From Bacilli bacterium (GTDB lineage Bacteria; Bacillota_I; Bacilli_A; RFN20; CAG-826), in contig JAZLKX010000028.1 of NCBI GenBank assembly GCA_045597865.1, forward strand, positions 44,224 to 108,223: DNA of 64,000 bases, in the 5' to 3' direction. Each line of letters opens with the position of its first letter. Position 1 is the first letter of the stretch. Of this stretch, positions 48,533 through 63,883 are shown piece by piece. The notes beneath the pieces were generated by a model. It was not told where the DNA came from, searched no databases, and saw only the letters and a program-made list of their open reading frames with translations. Position numbers and translations under genes: made by a program.

Positions 48533-48549
48533 GCCCATACAAGATGGGC
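48533..48549 (-). terminator. riboswitch-controlled terminator
   Basis: GCCCAT-CTTGT-ATGGGC + TTTGTTCTTCTTT; 5' arm CCCATCT can alternatively pair with AGATGGG at the P1 3' strand. Confidence 0.8.
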
Positions 48550-48568
48550 AAAGTAATAAAAAAATAAC

Positions 48569-48648
48569 CCATCTACCAAGCTTTAGCACCTTACTATTTG
48601 CAGGTTGCTGACGGGTCATTGAGCTTGTCTCTCGCCGTCTCTTTATGG
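48569..48648 (-). ncRNA. SAM-I (S-box) riboswitch, compact P4-less form
   Basis: CCAT-AAAGAG-ACGG-CGAGAG-ACAAG-CTC-AATGA-CCCGT-CAGCAACC...AGGTGCTAA-AGCTTG-GTAG-ATGG: P1, kink-turn P2, GCAACC/GGTGC P3 and CAAGC/GCTTG pseudoknot; TGaTATAAT promoter at 48656-48664. Confidence 0.88.
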
Positions 48649-48748
48649 TGCATATATTATATCACAAATAAGCTCCAATTTCCATTAAATCTGGCATAGG
48701 GATTATTATTACTTACAAAACAAAAGTTTTCCGTGTATAATAAAGCCT

Positions 48749-53643: not shown

Positions 53644-53749
53644 AAGTATATCCTCGCGTATTCGTTAACTTAAATTTTACCAAAGATTTAAGTTCGCCTC
53701 AATAAAAATAAAAGCCGTTGAGATTATCTCTCAAACGGCTCTAATTCAA

Positions 53750-53784
53750 GTGATAGAAGCTAGTCTTTGTATCACCCGATTTTT
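53750..53784 (-). repeat. hairpin element A, copy 1 (terminator at 53713-53740)
   Basis: AAAAATCGG-GTGATA-C-AAAG-ACTAG-CTTC-TATCAC overlapping the CDF stop codon. Confidence 0.85.
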
Positions 53785-54961: not shown

Positions 54962-55034
54962 GGCAACATTTTAACACTTCTTATTAAATAAGTTCATATT
55001 ATTTTCAAATCTAATCTATAAGAAAACTCATATA

Positions 55035-55069
55035 GTCATAGAAGCTAGTCTTTGTATGACCCGATTTTT
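55035..55069 (-). repeat. hairpin element A, copy 2
   Basis: AAAAATCGG-GTCATA-C-AAAG-ACTAG-CTTC-TATGAC; differs from copy 1 only by one compensatory base pair. Confidence 0.85.
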
Positions 55070-55200
55070 CAAAAATGCCTTTCGTTTTCATCCTTAATGG
55101 TAATAAGCAATTTATAATGAGACCAATTTAGATGTTGCCACAGTGTAGCAACAAAGTATATTTTAGAAAATTTTACCATTCGAGATAGTTCTGAAAAGGA
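55069..55200 (-). pseudogene. DUF1016 (YhcG) N-terminal domain remnant
   Basis: Own translation SFSELSRMVKFSKIYFVATLWQHLNWSHYKLLITIKDENERHF*; aligns with FSRRNLARM...LSWSHY..LL......ERIFY of 55958..56911. Confidence 0.8.
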
Positions 55201-55368
55201 AAATAAATTATAATAAATATAATTTAATACCCTTTTAATTTTGCTAACAAAAAACTTCTCTTAATTCTGTTTTATTGAATGTGTATCAACTTCTATGTGT
55301 AAAATTACCCATATAAGTTTTCCAAAAGAATATTTTCACCACAAGACTCTTTCAAATGATGGATTTCA

Positions 55369-55507
55369 AAACCCCCCGAAATCGGTGGGTTTAAACGAGT
55401 CGAATTCGAGGCGGTTAAAATTTCAAAATCGATAAGTATTCCTCAAACCCGTCGAAATCGGTGGGTCTAAACCAGTCAAATTTGACTAATTTAATTTAGT
55501 CAAATTA
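55369..55507. repeat. tandem array of ~6 imperfect 24-bp palindromes
   Basis: AAACCCCCCGAAATCGGTGGGTTT / AAACGAGTCGAATTCGAGGCGGTT / degenerate unit / AAACCCGTCGAAATCGGTGGGTCT / AAACCAGTCAAATTTGACTAATTT / partial unit. Confidence 0.8.
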
Positions 55508-55543
55508 ATTTTTAAATTTCAAAAAGTATTTTCAAAAACAAGA

Positions 55544-55632
55544 TTGCTTTTTAAAAATAAAATGTAATAATTATTATTAGTCAGTAGGACCGATTACGGC
55601 CGGACTATTTGCTCCTGAAAAGGAGCTTTTTT
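55544..55632 (+). ncRNA. candidate small RNA 1 (promoter, hairpin, terminator)
   Basis: TTGCTT..TGtAATAAT, hairpin TAGTC..GACCG-ATTA-CGGCC..GACTA, terminator GCTCCT-GAAA-AGGAGC-T6; no ORF. Confidence 0.5.
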
Positions 55633-55723
55633 ATATCAAATTTTGCTCTTTTTGAAACTCTTCGATCTTTTGAGCGAATTCTTGTTCCTTCGCGAGGATC
55701 TCTTCTCATATTGCTCATCTATA

Positions 55724-55758
55724 CCCATAGACTGTAATAGTCGTATGGGCCGAATTTT
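55724..55758 (-). repeat. hairpin element A, copy 3
   Basis: AAAATTCGG-CCCATA-C-GACT-ATTAC-AGTC-TATGGG, then a truncated terminator half. Confidence 0.85.
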
Positions 55759-55771
55759 CATAAAAATACTA

Positions 55772-55848
55772 TTTACAAAAAACTGACGAATTGTACAATA
55801 TAAGTGAACCCAAGGTAGCGGATTAAGCTACAATCGGTTCTTTTTTTT
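55772..55848 (+). ncRNA. candidate small RNA 2 / orphan attenuator
   Basis: TTTACA-16-TACAAT, then GAACC..GTAGC-GGATTAA-GCTAC..GGTTC-T8; no downstream ORF. Confidence 0.45.
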
Positions 55849-55957
55849 ATTTCTTTTTAAATTTGTTTAAATAATTATTCACTATATCCTTAGGATAGAT
55901 ACTAACAAGTTTGTTAATATTAGCATTATAATCATTTATTAAAAAATCAATCATACA

Positions 55958-56911
55958 TCATTTGTTCATAAGCTTTTGAATTTCTAATTTCAATAACTCT
56001 TTATCCGGCAGTTGAGTTAAATATTTTCTCACAAAAATTTGATTAGAAATTGAACCTAAAGCATATTCAATTTGAATATCGTCTTTGTCCTGGCACAAAA
56101 CTATACCGATTGGATCACAGTCTGTGTCTTGATTTACTTCTTTTTTATAATAATTAAGATAAAAATTTAATTGCTCAATTGAATTATTGGTAATCTTTCC
56201 TTTCTTAAGTTCTATTAATACAAAGCATTTTAAATTTGTGTTATAGAAAACCATATCCATAAAATAAGATTTGTTATTTATTACTATTCTTTGTTGCTCA
56301 CCAATGAATGCAAAACCTTTTCCGAGTTCGAGCAAAAACATTTTTAAATGCTTAACTAATTCACTCTCCAAGTCTTTTTCTTTGAAATCATCTTTAAGAT
56401 TTAAAAACTCAAAAACTAACGGATTTTTTAAAAATACATTTTCTTTAATGTCTTTTGTTATTAGTTTGTTCTTTGGCGTTGTATCCAATTCTCCAAGCAA
56501 TACTCTTTCATATAATGATGATTTTATTTGCCTTCTAAGTTCACGAACACTCCAACACGCCCTTGAACACTCGCGTTCATAAAAAATTCTTTCCTCATAA
56601 TTTTCAAGAGCTAATAGTTCAGAATAATGTGACCAAGATAAATTGGGCGACACTGTCGCCCCATCACTATAATCTTTATAAAAGATTATCATTCTCGCAA
56701 GATTTCTTCTTGAAAAGCCTTCACCATACTTTGGTCTTAATTCTTTTTCAAGTTCATTAAGTGGCACATTTCTAGAGTTACAGATTATTTCTCCAATTTT
56801 AAGATAGCTTTTAAGTAATACTATGTTAACTGTTGAAACAACATATGATTGGGCTTCTTTAACAACCAACTCAATTTGATTAATAATTTCTTTGTTTTGA
56901 ATCTCTTTCAT
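55958..56911 (-). CDS. DUF1016/YhcG-family PD-(D/E)XK nuclease
   Basis: GFS..NL..M, LSWSHY, WSVRELRRQI...LYER, FLLELGKGFAF, D..FY...LKCFVLIELK, PIGIVLC. Confidence 0.92.
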   Translation of the reverse strand: MKEIQNKEIINQIELVVKEAQSYVVSTVNIVLLKSYLKIGEIICNSRNVPLNELEKELRPKYGEGFSRRNLARMIIFYKDYSDGATVSPNLSWSHYSELLALENYEERIFYERECSRACWSVRELRRQIKSSLYERVLLGELDTTPKNKLITKDIKENVFLKNPLVFEFLNLKDDFKEKDLESELVKHLKMFLLELGKGFAFIGEQQRIVINNKSYFMDMVFYNTNLKCFVLIELKKGKITNNSIEQLNFYLNYYKKEVNQDTDCDPIGIVLCQDKDDIQIEYALGSISNQIFVRKYLTQLPDKELLKLEIQKLMNK

Positions 56912-57041
56912 TAAATGTCCTCCTAATTATAATTTCAGGAGAATTTGTCATTTCCGATAAAAAACTTTCTAAGTCACTAAGTGACTTGTTTTTTTATAAT
57001 AAAAGCCATAAGAGATTTCTTTCTCATATGGCTCATCTATA

Positions 57042-57074
57042 CCCATAGACTGTAATAGTCGTATGGGCCGATTT
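57042..57074 (-). repeat. hairpin element A, copy 4 (terminator at 57004-57033)
   Basis: AAATCGG-CCCATA-C-GACT-ATTAC-AGTC-TATGGG overlapping the KilA-N stop codon. Confidence 0.88.
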
Positions 57075-57882
57075 ACTGCAATAATTTAGGCTTATAACTA
57101 GTAAATAATAGCTTTTCCTTATTGGCTTCTTCATTCAATAATACCAAGCGATCAGATTGTGGAATTCCCTTTTCAATTAACTTAGAATTAAGAAGTTCAA
57201 GATTTGAGAGAATTGTTAATTCAATAACATTTGCGAAATCACGAATATTACCATTTTGATTTGGATTTGCTTGTTTCCATTCATTTGCAGTTACCCCAAA
57301 CAAAGCAACATTAATAACATCTGCTTCTGATGCATATATAAAAGAAATCTGTTGTGGTTTTAAATCAATCTGAATAATGTTTTTCTTAATAGCGTCTGTT
57401 TGAAGCAGATAATTCAAACTTGATAGTTGGCGTTTTCCAGCCCAATCAAGACGTTTGTTTTCTTCTTCTTTTAAACGTTGATATTCACGAATAAGTAAGA
57501 CCTTGAATTCTGCAGATATCCAACTTGCGAATTCAAAAGCAATATCTTTGTGTGCGTATGTACCGCCACCATTTCTTCCAGATTTGACTCTAAGGCCGAT
57601 TGCATTTGTAAGATTAATCCATTTTGCTGGTGACATTGTAAAAGCATTCGTTCCTGGTTTGGTTTTAAACATATCGAAATCGATAGGTTTGAATTCTGAG
57701 TTGAATATAAATTCCCAAAAATGCAAAAATTCTAATGTATCAATTCTTCTCAACCAGTTACAAATTACAATGAATGGCTCTTCTGAATTTTTAGATCTTG
57801 CGATATCTGTAAGTGAGATATAATCATCTTCGTTAACTCCAGTAATGTTAATGTCCAAATTTTTAATTGTAAGTTTTTTCAT
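57073..57882 (-). CDS. KilA-N domain DNA-binding protein
   Basis: DYISLTDIA, NWLR...TLEFL..WE, GR.GGGTYAHKDIAFEFASWIS.EF, YASEAD..N.ALFG.TA..W, GNIRD. Confidence 0.9.
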   Translation of the reverse strand: MKKLTIKNLDINITGVNEDDYISLTDIARSKNSEEPFIVICNWLRRIDTLEFLHFWEFIFNSEFKPIDFDMFKTKPGTNAFTMSPAKWINLTNAIGLRVKSGRNGGGTYAHKDIAFEFASWISAEFKVLLIREYQRLKEEENKRLDWAGKRQLSSLNYLLQTDAIKKNIIQIDLKPQQISFIYASEADVINVALFGVTANEWKQANPNQNGNIRDFANVIELTILSNLELLNSKLIEKGIPQSDRLVLLNEEANKEKLLFTSYKPKLLQ

Positions 57883-58168
57883 AATTGAAACTCCTTTATT
57901 AAGTATGAGAAGAAAAAGAATTCAGTGCGTCATGCACTTAATCCTTCCTTCATCTTTCTCTACAAATATTATATTAAAAATAAGGCGAAAATTGAAGTTA
58001 AAATTAAAGAAATTAAATTATACAAAGTATAATTTAAAATCATACGTATTAAATATATAAATTAAATTTTATTATATTTAATACTCTTTCAAATTTGTTA
58101 ATAAATATTGTAATGATTTTTAAATTAATAAGCCGTGTGAGATGTATTTCTCATATGGCTCATCTATA

Positions 58169-58203
58169 CCCATAGACTGTAATAGTCGTATGGGCCGATT
58201 TTT
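58169..58203 (-). repeat. hairpin element A, copy 5 (terminator at 58131-58160)
   Basis: Near-identical to copy 4 over ~70 bp including the terminator. Confidence 0.88.
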
Positions 58204-58270
58204 CATCAAAATCCTAAGGTTTTCCTTGATATTTATATAATGGAAGGGTATTTAACCGTCATTGTGAATA

Positions 58271-58966
58271 TTAGAATCTCATTCCGCATCCATACATAAT
58301 AAGAATGGCTACACCTATAATTCCACCCATTACTAGAATTCCAATACCGACAATAATTAGAACGCTCTTTATAACATACTTTCTATCATTTGAAGCTTCT
58401 TTAGATAACGATATATTAACAACATTAGTAATGAGTTTATTTTCTAATGTGGCTTTTGTCATTTTTCCAGTTATATCGTTATCTTCTAGAGATGAGGTAT
58501 CAACCTCTTGTTTCATATATGCCTCGATAGTTTGTTTTACATTAAGTAACTTTTTTTGTGTTTCTTGAGAAATTGAATCTGTATACATTTCAAAAACAGG
58601 ACCAGCTAGGTTCCATTCCTTAGTAAGAACATAACTTCTTCTGGAATTGAATGATAAAGAATATGATGAAACATCACCATTTTTTGTAAAATAAGTAATC
58701 GTGATAGTCCAAATAAGAGGATTTCCAACGGTTGATAATGGAGCAGATCCTCCTATAATACCAATTCTACCTGATGTAGATATTGCACCGCCACTTACTG
58801 GTGTTCTTAAAATGTTATTTCTAACTCCTGAATTAGACACCTGAACGGATGATATATTTTCTATTGGGCATATGAATTGCTCAGCAAAATGATAGATGAC
58901 AACAAGGGCTGTGGCTTTTACCGCAGCTACTGCAACCTTAGAATTGAGTAAATCAATTAAAGACAT
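58271..58966 (-). CDS. hypothetical protein with C-terminal TM
   Basis: 231-aa ORF with AAGGAG RBS. Confidence 0.65.
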   Translation of the reverse strand: MSLIDLLNSKVAVAAVKATALVVIYHFAEQFICPIENISSVQVSNSGVRNNILRTPVSGGAISTSGRIGIIGGSAPLSTVGNPLIWTITITYFTKNGDVSSYSLSFNSRRSYVLTKEWNLAGPVFEMYTDSISQETQKKLLNVKQTIEAYMKQEVDTSSLEDNDITGKMTKATLENKLITNVVNISLSKEASNDRKYVIKSVLIIVGIGILVMGGIIGVAILIMYGCGMRF

Positions 58967-59126
58967 AAAGTTCTCCTTTCGTAATGAGCGAACTGCTCTA
59001 TGAAAGACATCAGTAGCTAAACCTCTTCAATTATATCACTTATATTTTTTATATCATCTTAAATAGTGTTTTCGTTTGTTGGCTCGCGTTACAATGTTTT
59101 CATTAGCCTTATTCAATGATATGGTC

Positions 59127-59162
59127 AAAAATTCGGCCAATACGACCTCTTCGGTCTATTGG
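59127..59162 (+). repeat. hairpin element A, copy 6 (followed by palindrome B at 59174-59221)
   Basis: AAAAATTCGG-CCAATA-C-GACC-TCTTC-GGTC-TATTGG. Confidence 0.85.
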
Positions 59163-59596
59163 TGATTATTAGAAAATATCCAGGATTTTAAAGGGATTTT
59201 CCCTGAAATTCCTGGATATTTCTTATTGAAGCACTGTAAGGAATAGGTGCTTAAACTAAGCGTATTTATTAAATAGCGAGTTTACCTTATATTAGTAATC
59301 TAAAATTCAAAAGTTATAGGTTCTAAATAATTATAACTATCAGTGTGGTCTCATTAACAATACATATTAACCAGACCACTTAGTAATCCAAAATATTAAA
59401 AGACTCAATTCATCCTTGCGGCTGAACCCAGTCTTTTCTTATACCTCTATTTTTACTGTTTATAAGTTTTTGGGCATTTTTGTGCTTTTTATTTACAAAG
59501 TAAATAATTTCGTTCACGAAAAATGGGAATAGATTTTTTGTACGCGTGTTATGATTTATATAACCCATAAACATATCAATGCGAAAGGATAAATAT

Positions 59597-60586
59597 ATGA
59601 ATATCGATGAATTAATTAATTTACTTATTAACAAACAAATCAACACTCGAAATAATGCGACTTATTGTGTTAATCAAATGCTTTTAGACATGAATATGTT
59701 TTTTGGCAAATATATTAGCGATTATATAGAAGAAAACAAAAAGCAAAAGAACTGCAAAAAATTAACAATCAGCAAAATTTCTGAAGAACTTACAAAACAG
59801 CTAGGTAAGGGATACTCCAGACAAAATTTGTCAAAGATGTTAATTTTTTATACTATGTATAAAAAATGCTCGGAGGTTCCGAGCAATTTGTCTTGGTCAC
59901 AAATATGCGAACTCCTATATATCAAAAATATCAACGAACGTAAATTCTATGAAATTGAATGTGTAAAACAAAGATGGTCATCAACAGAATTGAGAAGGCA
60001 AATTCAAACTGGCTATTATCAAAGAGTACTGCTCGGTTCGAAAGAAAATATTCAAACAAAAGCAAACCAATTGTCCACTATTGGAAATGAAATTATTGAA
60101 CCTAGAGATATTTTGGTAGACCCCATTGTCTTAAATTTCTTTAAACAAAAAACAAACCTTAAAGAAAAAGATATCGAAACTGGAATTATTGGCCATTTAA
60201 AAGAATTTCTTCTTGAGCTTGGCTCTGGATTTAGATTCATCGACAATCAATATCAATTCAATATATCAAACAAGAAATATTTTGTTGATTTAGTATTCTA
60301 TAATGAAGTGCTTAAATGCTACGTTCTAATAGAGCTAAAGTCAGCACCGTTCCATAAAGATGTTATTGGCCAAATCAATACCTACCTCAACTATTTCAAA
60401 AGCAACATAAACAAACCTGGAGACAACGATCCAATTGGCATTGTTATGTGCACTGATTTTGAACATATACAAGTTGAATATGCATTAGGGAATATATCGA
60501 ATCAAATATTCGTGACAAAATACATTACCCATCTTCCAAAGAAAGAAGATCTCGAAAGAGAATTATTATTAGCTCAAAAACGTTAA
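59597..60586 (+). CDS. second DUF1016/YhcG-family PD-(D/E)XK nuclease
   Basis: GKGYS..NL..M, LSWS, WS..ELRRQI, FLLELG.GF.F, DLVFY...LKCYVLIELK, PIGI; start MNIDE after AAAGGA. Confidence 0.92.
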   Translation: MNIDELINLLINKQINTRNNATYCVNQMLLDMNMFFGKYISDYIEENKKQKNCKKLTISKISEELTKQLGKGYSRQNLSKMLIFYTMYKKCSEVPSNLSWSQICELLYIKNINERKFYEIECVKQRWSSTELRRQIQTGYYQRVLLGSKENIQTKANQLSTIGNEIIEPRDILVDPIVLNFFKQKTNLKEKDIETGIIGHLKEFLLELGSGFRFIDNQYQFNISNKKYFVDLVFYNEVLKCYVLIELKSAPFHKDVIGQINTYLNYFKSNINKPGDNDPIGIVMCTDFEHIQVEYALGNISNQIFVTKYITHLPKKEDLERELLLAQKR

Positions 60587-63850: not shown

Positions 63851-63883
63851 ATTCTATAGAGAGAGAGAGAGAGAGAGAGTCAA
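63851..63883 (-). promoter_or_regulatory. promoter with (TC)11 microsatellite spacer
   Basis: TTGACT (63883-63878), 21-bp spacer of TC repeats, TAGAAT (63856-63851). Confidence 0.75.

Follow-up and report, generated by a model that had tools for sequence, protein, structure and literature searches.

Operators can lie inside coding sequence or cluster before the gene of a regulator, as do lac O2 in lacZ, parS within spo0J/parB and the C-boxes of restriction-modification controllers. Repetitive extragenic palindromic sequences (REPs), with which RAYT genes are associated, are present as tens to hundreds of near-identical copies in a genome. Integron attC sites, which measure at least 57 bp and are marked by defined boxes and extrahelical bases, are found 3' of cassettes and depend on IntI. 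The ToxI repeats of ToxI/ToxN are direct repeats, identical to one another, that an endoribonuclease toxin processes. Here we describe a palindromic element in a 64,000-nucleotide (nt) stretch of a Bacilli bacterium genome (contig JAZLKX010000028.1; the whole stretch is referred to as the window, and its genome as G000). One copy of the element lies within the coding sequence of a KilA-N domain gene, and free copies form a non-coding array at 55369-55516.

The intragenic palindrome spans 57664-57693 on the minus strand and covers codons F64-K73 of the KilA-N gene. Its 24-nt core (57667-57690, AAACATATCGAAATCGATAGGTTT) is centred on the boundary between the D68 and F69 codons, pairs complementarily at 10 of 12 positions and is translated on the minus strand as KPIDFDMF, in agreement with an earlier reading made from the letters of the window (the sequence-only reading), which had noticed a near-palindrome inside this gene. 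We compared it with homologues from 80 loci, the best 80 of at least 566 in our genome collection, which share 49-62% amino acid identity, comprise 725 kb and come from Bacteroidota, Proteobacteria, Firmicutes, candidate phyla, Chloroflexi and others; many of these loci are mutually related, so the counts overstate independence. At the codon-aligned position, 43 of 87 distinct genes had all 12 pairs, 17 had 11, 17 had 10, nine had 9 and one had 8. Thus, at least 10 pairs form in 77/87 homologues and at least 8 in 87/87, strongly bearing out the expectation that the segment would always be palindromic. Every other 24-nt window in these genes formed at most 10 pairs, a value reached by 3 of ~63,000 windows, and the motif window was the strict pairing maximum in 83/87 genes. 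Resampling synonymous codons gave a mean of 6.96 pairs, compared with 11.06 observed, and reached 12/12 in 3 of 17,400 resamples.

The arms of the palindrome vary, and they do so as complements. Arm codons were found in the combinations CCC/GGG, CCT/AGG, CTG/CAG, TCC/GGA, CAC/GTG, CGT/ACG and GTT/AAC, as well as ATC/GAT, GTC/GAC and CTC/GAG. Because these codons covary as complements, the residue pairs P/G, P/R, L/Q, S/G, H/V and R/T appear to be set by base pairing. Among 60 distinct sequences, 91% of cells paired (slid controls reached at most 63%), and changes on both sides accounted for 99 cells, as opposed to 27 ± 4 in shuffles, none of 500 of which reached 99. Pairing was retained even where the core had changed, as at loci L184 (ATGGGATTCCAT, 11/12 pairs), L145 and L159. 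The consensus of this class of element has a conserved CG-containing centre, YCGAWWTCGR, A/T ends, TTTAAA...TTTAAA, and arms that vary freely yet remain complementary. Mismatches at pairs 4-15 of the genes included 13 G.U on the sense strand and 16 on the antisense strand, and those of 49 upstream units 11 and 19, respectively; as there is no strand-specific G.U excess, a constraint at the DNA level fits better than one at the RNA level.

The array at 55369-55516 belongs to the same class. The sequence-only reading had described it as about six head-to-tail 24-bp units, which did not hold: it consists of two copies of a ~76-bp three-unit cluster (55369-55409 and 55445-55485 are 85% identical), each with two recognisable units and one decayed unit, making four recognisable and two decayed units, one of which is 28 nt long. 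Tandem Repeats Finder gave no row at 55369-55516 with a score of at least 30. In the first copy, unit u1 (55369-55392, CCGAAATCGG core) forms 10/12 pairs and lies 1 nt from the intragenic KilA-N segments of G015, G040 and L033; u2 (55393-55416, TCGAATTCGA core) forms 9/12 pairs and resembles the segment of the G009 and G017:C37 genes; and the decayed third unit, u3 (55417-55444, 28 nt), forms at most 6/12 pairs and is in register with u6 in the 76-bp repeat. In the second copy, u4 (55445-55468), the duplicate of u1, forms 8/12 pairs, has three mismatches to u1 and is conserved in G017; u5 (55469-55492), the duplicate of u2, has lost both CG steps (GTCAAATTTGAC) and is still palindromic with 10/12 pairs, its counterpart in G017 being AAACCGGTCGAAATTGACTAGTTT; and the decayed u6 (55493-55516) forms 4/12 pairs and contains stop codons in the register in which the array had been read as peptide. 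None of the six units is assigned a strand. Both u5 and a decayed unit at L189 (GTCAATTTTGAC) have lost the two CG steps by complementary changes, with palindromy retained.

Read in that register, the array had been said to give NRLEFDSF, KPTDFGGF, KLVKFDWF and RPTDFDGF, and all four translations are correct. The likeness between array and gene segment is not due to chance: with up to two mismatches, AAAC-N4-CGAAWTCG-N4-GTTT occurs at four sites in the window (55369, 55393, 55445 and 57667) versus 0.10 expected, and none of 100 shuffles reached four. In the whole 1.74-Mb genome, the exact motif has only two sites, u1 and the KilA-N segment, and a search with u4 at up to six mismatches recovered only u4, u1 (on both strands) and the KilA-N segment, that is, four 24-mers. 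Searching 55000-55950 by tblastn with 48 family proteins matched only the units, with a weak and unconvincing extension over 55417-55449, which upholds the earlier observation that no other KilA-N sequence flanks the array. Array units also match KilA-N genes of other species of the genus at 89-94%. Within the genus, the CCGATTTCG core type is found in u1, u4 and the G045 array as well as in the G015, G040 and G042 genes; lineage-specific core variants are therefore common to genes and arrays. The window array is orphaned: it sits in a separate cassette, 1.56 kb from the KilA-N gene, and would therefore be either a relic or a site acting in trans.

Several other identities for the array units were considered. 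A search of 55000-59600 against Rfam, at E values up to 5, returned nothing relevant, and a scan for tRNA and tmRNA found none. The units were not called by a terminator scan and were rejected as intrinsic terminators; the UUUAAAC stretch is in the wrong frame for a frameshift slippery site; and no supporting context was found for the units as restriction sites (EcoRI, TaqI).

Free clusters also occur in other genomes and in metagenomes. Our searches for free units required the CGAWWTCG core, so core conservation among these units is partly circular. In the 80 genome loci, few units with this core and at least 9/12 pairs lay outside the motif position: three at L047, two and one variant at L077, and one each at L102 and L061, all within ~320 nt upstream of the gene start. 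A fifth free site, at L087, looks like part of another KilA-N-like reading frame. Sites thus lie at the gene of the candidate regulator itself, inside it in 87/87 genes and no more than 260 nt upstream of it in 34/113 genes across all loci and in 4/81 genes of the unselected genome sample. Where upstream units are present (34 genes), the distance from the end of the last one to the ATG is mostly 16-67 nt, and the clusters comprise two units in 21, three in 6, one in 6 and four in 1.

The pattern of two adjacent units occurs in at least 120 metagenome stretches, and 24 of the first 80 metagenome loci fetched by this DNA pattern alone encode the KilA-N family. In G045, the KilA-N stop codon is directly followed by a cluster, and the cluster directly by the ribosome-binding site (RBS) of a helix-turn-helix-acetyltransferase gene. 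The sequence-only reading had proposed looking for extragenic arrays near KilA-N genes elsewhere, and the G045 cluster, the unselected genome sample and the metagenome loci all supply them. Among 401 genomes of the wider group, the two-unit pattern was present in two, G000 included, and a reversed control in none, too rare for a test of co-occurrence. Within one cluster, the stems of the units always differ, and an upstream unit lies within 1 nt of the gene's own unit in only 3 of 33 gene and array combinations. Some units are chimeric: one in G045 joins a G009-type left arm to the right arm of its own gene's unit, and others occur in L153 and L136. The units are strongly, and not exclusively, linked to the KilA-N gene.

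The KilA-N gene (57073-57882, minus strand; open reading frame list, Pfam PF04383 and PADLOC) encodes 269 amino acids. Residues 16-139 match Pfam PF04383 (KilA-N) with an E value of 8.9e-16 and 58.1 bits, compared with a curated cut-off of 23.8. The PADLOC PDC-S22 profile matches over its full length (E 1.1e-109, residues 2-258 on positions 5-262 of 281), making the gene a candidate single-gene defence system in that library. NCBIfam has no family for this protein, orf231 or orf305. An AlphaFold2 model (mean predicted local distance difference test score, 81.3) predicts an APSES-like winged-helix domain followed by a helical C-terminal domain. The best solved fold match of the N-terminal domain is Mbp1 (1bm8; Z 7.6, root-mean-square deviation 2.4, 84 residues aligned), a modest match at Z<8, and the next is Bqt4 (Z 5.8). 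A profile of 48 family members found only a chance-level match among PDB sequences (E 0.33), and Foldseek with the whole model found nothing in the PDB at E values of 0.001 or below, the weak top rows being DdrC. Residues 64-73 of the model make up a short helix and a loop that come directly after helix 47-60, a position that would correspond to the APSES wing. The homologous fungal proteins SBF/MBF recognise the CG-core palindrome ACGCGT, which PCG2 reads through its wing according to the excerpt of PMC4862756 that we used; a KilA-N toxin, CreP, is mentioned in an excerpt of PMC12737573.

Neighbours of the family across the 80 genome loci include RhuM (9 loci), HsdM (8), HsdR (5) and type III Mod (5). 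At L047 (4899-5813; also L130), a three-unit cluster and KilA-N gene are inserted within a lysine-fermentation operon, 3' of a MutS-like gene whose reading frame enters the units and 5' of aminomutase subunit genes. The KilA-N/PDC-S22 gene is mobile and may need tight control.

We tentatively favour, at somewhat less than an even chance, a reading in which the units are hairpin-forming DNA sites that the APSES-like KilA-N domain reads through their CG core, so that regulation travels with a mobile gene. The segment of 8-10 codons would then be a nucleic-acid element in its own right, a hairpin-forming palindrome of 24-30 bp; the array at 55369-55516 is a duplicated, partly decayed cluster (two times three units) of free copies of the same class. 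The units would act as cis sites at the DNA level. The gene may be a passenger of restriction-modification loci and operons that is mobile, has no promoter and is possibly toxic. Because a copy lies inside the coding sequence universally, we propose that the gene takes its own control site wherever it lands; extra clusters just upstream of the start codon would add further sites, and the window cluster would be an orphaned relic or a site acting in trans. Speaking for this account, the pairing and covariation statistics suggest selection or maintenance at the nucleic-acid level, free units cluster at KilA-N genes, and the KilA-N domain, whose predicted fold is closest to Mbp1, is probably a DNA binder of the right type. 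Further points in its favour are the core variants that genes and arrays share within a lineage, the absence of a strand-specific G.U excess, and the mobility of the gene with its possible need for tight control. Protein binding, the KilA-N domain as the binder and a regulatory outcome are what we infer here, next to the observed palindrome, covariation, clusters and cluster positions.

Several points weigh against this account. A dimer that reads duplex DNA needs no complementarity in arms that it does not contact, so the covariation would have to stem from folding into a hairpin or cruciform, or else from a mutational process. The decayed units u5 and L189 are palindromic after loss of the CG core, and functionless homogenisation of the arms would give the same result. 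Upstream units are present at only ~5% of genes in the unselected sample. No KilA-N gene is visible in the sequence examined at 56 of the 80 array loci found by pattern, and some arrays precede other genes (a DpnII endonuclease gene at five loci, a 236-amino acid open reading frame at five) or directly follow a serine recombinase gene (six loci); the units therefore need no KilA-N gene in cis. The DpnII-type clusters, at metagenome loci L126, L135, L157, L164 and L171, are two-unit clusters between the genes for a D12-class adenine methylase and the DpnII endonuclease and end ~7 nt before the endonuclease ATG. Finally, the proposed equivalence of the segment to the APSES wing comes from the order of secondary-structure elements in the model, as distinct from a residue-level alignment.

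The sequence-only reading had offered binding sites or decoys for KilA-N proteins as one of two interpretations, and the units as putative sites of this kind are plausible. Its strong form, in which each protein would read the arms that it encodes itself, is disfavoured because so few gene and array combinations share a unit within 1 nt. We also regard as improbable a self-referential version, in which the DNA encoding the loop behind the recognition helix, at the wing position, would be the palindromic site or hairpin bound by that very domain, the gene would be its own operator and the free clusters would be decoys or antidote-like sinks titrating a potentially toxic defence protein until infection upsets the balance.

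The other interpretation, that the array silently stores 8-codon cassettes which are exchanged with part of the gene and so alter a specificity segment, is the least credible of those considered here. Array units are indeed unlike the resident segment (in 30 of 33 combinations every upstream unit is more than 1 nt away from it) and resemble the segments of other alleles, and the segment follows the second long helix of the winged-helix domain. However, a swapped segment should be hypervariable, and it is not. Arm divergence (12 variable positions) tracked that of the 177-nt flanks by class (0.065 versus 0.164, 0.176 versus 0.272, 0.392 versus 0.360 and 0.530 versus 0.438), being about as fast and not faster, and the whole 24-mer diverges more slowly than the flanks. 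In 11 gene pairs with at least 80% flank identity, the segment differs by ~0 to 1 nt: two pairs at 90% or above had no segment differences, and nine pairs at 80-90% had 3.2% differences. Moreover, the units have no flanking homology to the gene that could support gene conversion (the tblastn search with 48 family proteins), some (u3 and u6) contain stop codons, and unrelated genes are also preceded by arrays. As to alleles equal to an array unit, near-identical segments do exist in other species (those 1 nt from u1), whereas swapped alleles were not found: metagenome contigs with a u1-like KilA-N segment are diverged homologues, judged by their flanks.

Among explanations that dispense with a KilA-N binder, RNA-level hairpins are possible, if rather less than likely. 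With no dedicated protein, stem-loops would damp read-through or translation initiation of harmful genes (KilA-N, restriction endonuclease) in foreign operons, and the intragenic copy would be an internal attenuator. The clusters take up the interval that separates the upstream stop codon from the RBS or ATG (mostly 16-67 nt before the start, 7 nt at DpnII and before the RBS in G045), stems differ within each cluster as expected if each folds alone, and pairing is conserved more than sequence. Against this, neither genes (13 versus 16) nor units (11 versus 19) show a sense-strand excess of G.U over A.C mismatches, a plain hairpin needs no conserved loop and closing sequence, the window units were not called terminator-like, and translating ribosomes normally melt hairpins inside coding regions. 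Quasi-palindromes are hotspots of templated mutation, and the lack of strand bias among mismatches also agrees with a functionless, self-perpetuating quasi-palindrome, which we consider unlikely. The peptide motif F-K-x-[VIL]-E-F-[DE]-x-F-K can be encoded as a palindrome, template-switch repair at the hairpin would copy changes from arm to arm, and free units would be by-products; in its favour, decayed non-coding units whose CG core has been lost symmetrically (u5 with 10/12 pairs, and L189) are still palindromes, and imperfect units resemble half-converted chimeras. It gives no mechanism for free copies, however, and leaves unexplained both their gathering at fixed distances before start codons in several phyla and their retention of the same ends and core, the latter a partly circular point given that the searches required the core. 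The chimeric units (G045, L153 and L136) could alternatively reflect recombination, with units acting as attC-like hairpin sites that mark cassette junctions and are cut and joined at the centre by a recombinase. The order of stop codon, units and RBS is cassette-like, and at the six loci noted above an array comes right after a serine recombinase gene. We nevertheless find this quite doubtful, as a site inside coding sequence cannot be a cassette boundary, the cassette boundaries in the window are other elements (the R repeats described below), and across the 80 genome loci no recombinase recurs consistently beside the gene, the window itself not having been searched for an integrase.

The array and the KilA-N gene lie in a locus divided by a repeat of ~70 nt, R, which follows each minus-strand gene: those for the CDF transporter, YhcG/PDC-S02, KilA-N/PDC-S22 and orf231. 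In R, a terminator hairpin on the gene strand is followed by another hairpin, which occurs in covarying versions (CCCATAG..TATGGG, GTCATAG..TATGAC and GTGATAG..TATCAC), and then by CCGATTT. Within G000, it is found at this locus only, and it also occurs in G017 and G008. One copy lies at 53714-53782. The other four are given on the plus strand. R0 (55028-55067), a hairpin followed by CCGATTT that is also present beside the CDF gene in G017, is the left bound of the array cassette, and R1 (55690-55757) is the right bound. R2 (57005-57075, core 57032-57071) directly follows the KilA-N stop codon, where minus-strand hairpin A and a T run read as a terminator, and R3 (58132-58202, core 58159-58198) lies upstream of the KilA-N cassette. 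The 40-nt core of R1, 55714-55753, is identical in three copies. Homology to G017 ends at R1, with the match stopping at window position 55704.

The array occupies its own R0-R1 interval, together with a small RNA-like unit and what remains of a gene still intact in G017; at the same place, G017 has a single three-unit cluster. Some metagenome contigs contain R-to-R joints that skip single cassettes, weak evidence given that the likeness of these contigs is 85%. In its layout, the R-bounded locus looks like a shuffling cassette array without a known recombinase. The four sequencing runs compared all consisted of metagenome contigs at that likeness, which can neither rank depth nor prove absence; we draw no conclusion from the sparse or missing cover of 57664-57774 in some of them.

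The small RNA-like unit (55549-55632, plus strand), which shows ~90% conservation in G017, combines a promoter-like site (55550-55577) with a hairpin and a terminator (55611-55626) that has a T run after it. It faces the 3' end of the truncated gene (remnant 55636-55761) in convergent orientation. An element upstream of the YhcG gene (56905-56997), with a plus-strand terminator at 56970-56988, recurs at five other places in G000 (contigs C29, C25 twice, C8 and C16) and in G017. Two YhcG/DUF1016 PDDEXK nuclease paralogues, at 55958-56911 (minus strand) and 59579-60586 (plus strand), match PADLOC PDC-S02 (E 1e-103 and 2e-97); the KilA-N cassette lies between them and they point in opposite directions, so that this part of the locus can be read as a small defence island. 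Elsewhere in the window, an S-adenosylmethionine riboswitch at 48548-48651 (minus strand; RF00162, 48.3 bits) is the only Rfam match at the gathering threshold and is unrelated, and an (AG)11 run at 63858-63879 lies near the window end, which is the end of contig C28.

In the published literature on KilA-N with palindromes, restriction-modification, RhuM or PDC-S22, we found no description of a coding palindrome or of free clusters. If real, the phenomenon would be a clear natural example of nucleic-acid structure taking precedence over protein coding, with amino acid pairs fixed by base complementarity across phyla. A widespread and uncharacterised candidate defence gene, PDC-S22, would be marked by a ready-made, testable cis element, opening a direct experimental route to how mobile defence genes that lack promoters are restrained at whatever site they enter. 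That units also precede restriction endonuclease genes hints that portable control of this kind may be used more widely in defence loci.

Set beside known systems, the element shares with the silent cassettes of pilS and vls neither a hypervariable segment nor flanking homology at the units. As in type III toxin-antitoxin systems, a possibly toxic gene has a short cluster of repeats immediately before it; unlike ToxI/ToxN, the repeats are palindromes with different arms and the protein has a predicted winged-helix fold, and we do not place the locus in type III. Integron attC sites likewise keep structure while sequence varies, have conserved ends and accompany promoterless cassettes, whereas the units here are 24 bp long and lie 5' of genes and also inside a gene. 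REPs and bacterial interspersed mosaic elements (BIMEs) with RAYT genes are similar in their clustered, imperfect palindromic, intercistronic units and in an associated protein-coding gene flanked by units; they differ in that the exact motif has two sites in 1.74 Mb, not many copies, in that the arms of our units differ and in that no Y1 transposase is involved. The APSES proteins of SBF/MBF and their MluI cell cycle box (MCB) site offer a homologous domain (Pfam KilA-N; Mbp1, Z 7.6) and the CG-core palindrome ACGCGT; they are eukaryotic transcription factors with another core sequence, and the excerpt of PMC4862756 that we used contains no evidence of a site in their own coding sequence. Operators of the lac O2, parS and C-box kind likewise tie a palindromic site to a gene that encodes a DNA-binding protein; palindromes in twos or threes just upstream of a start codon and a restriction-modification context are also shared. 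The element differs from these in that its arms vary yet stay complementary and its protein, a putative binder, is KilA-N/APSES-like rather than Xre-type, and in that the KilA-N site lies family-wide at one fixed codon position, where it dictates amino acids (P/G, L/Q, H/V and R/T).

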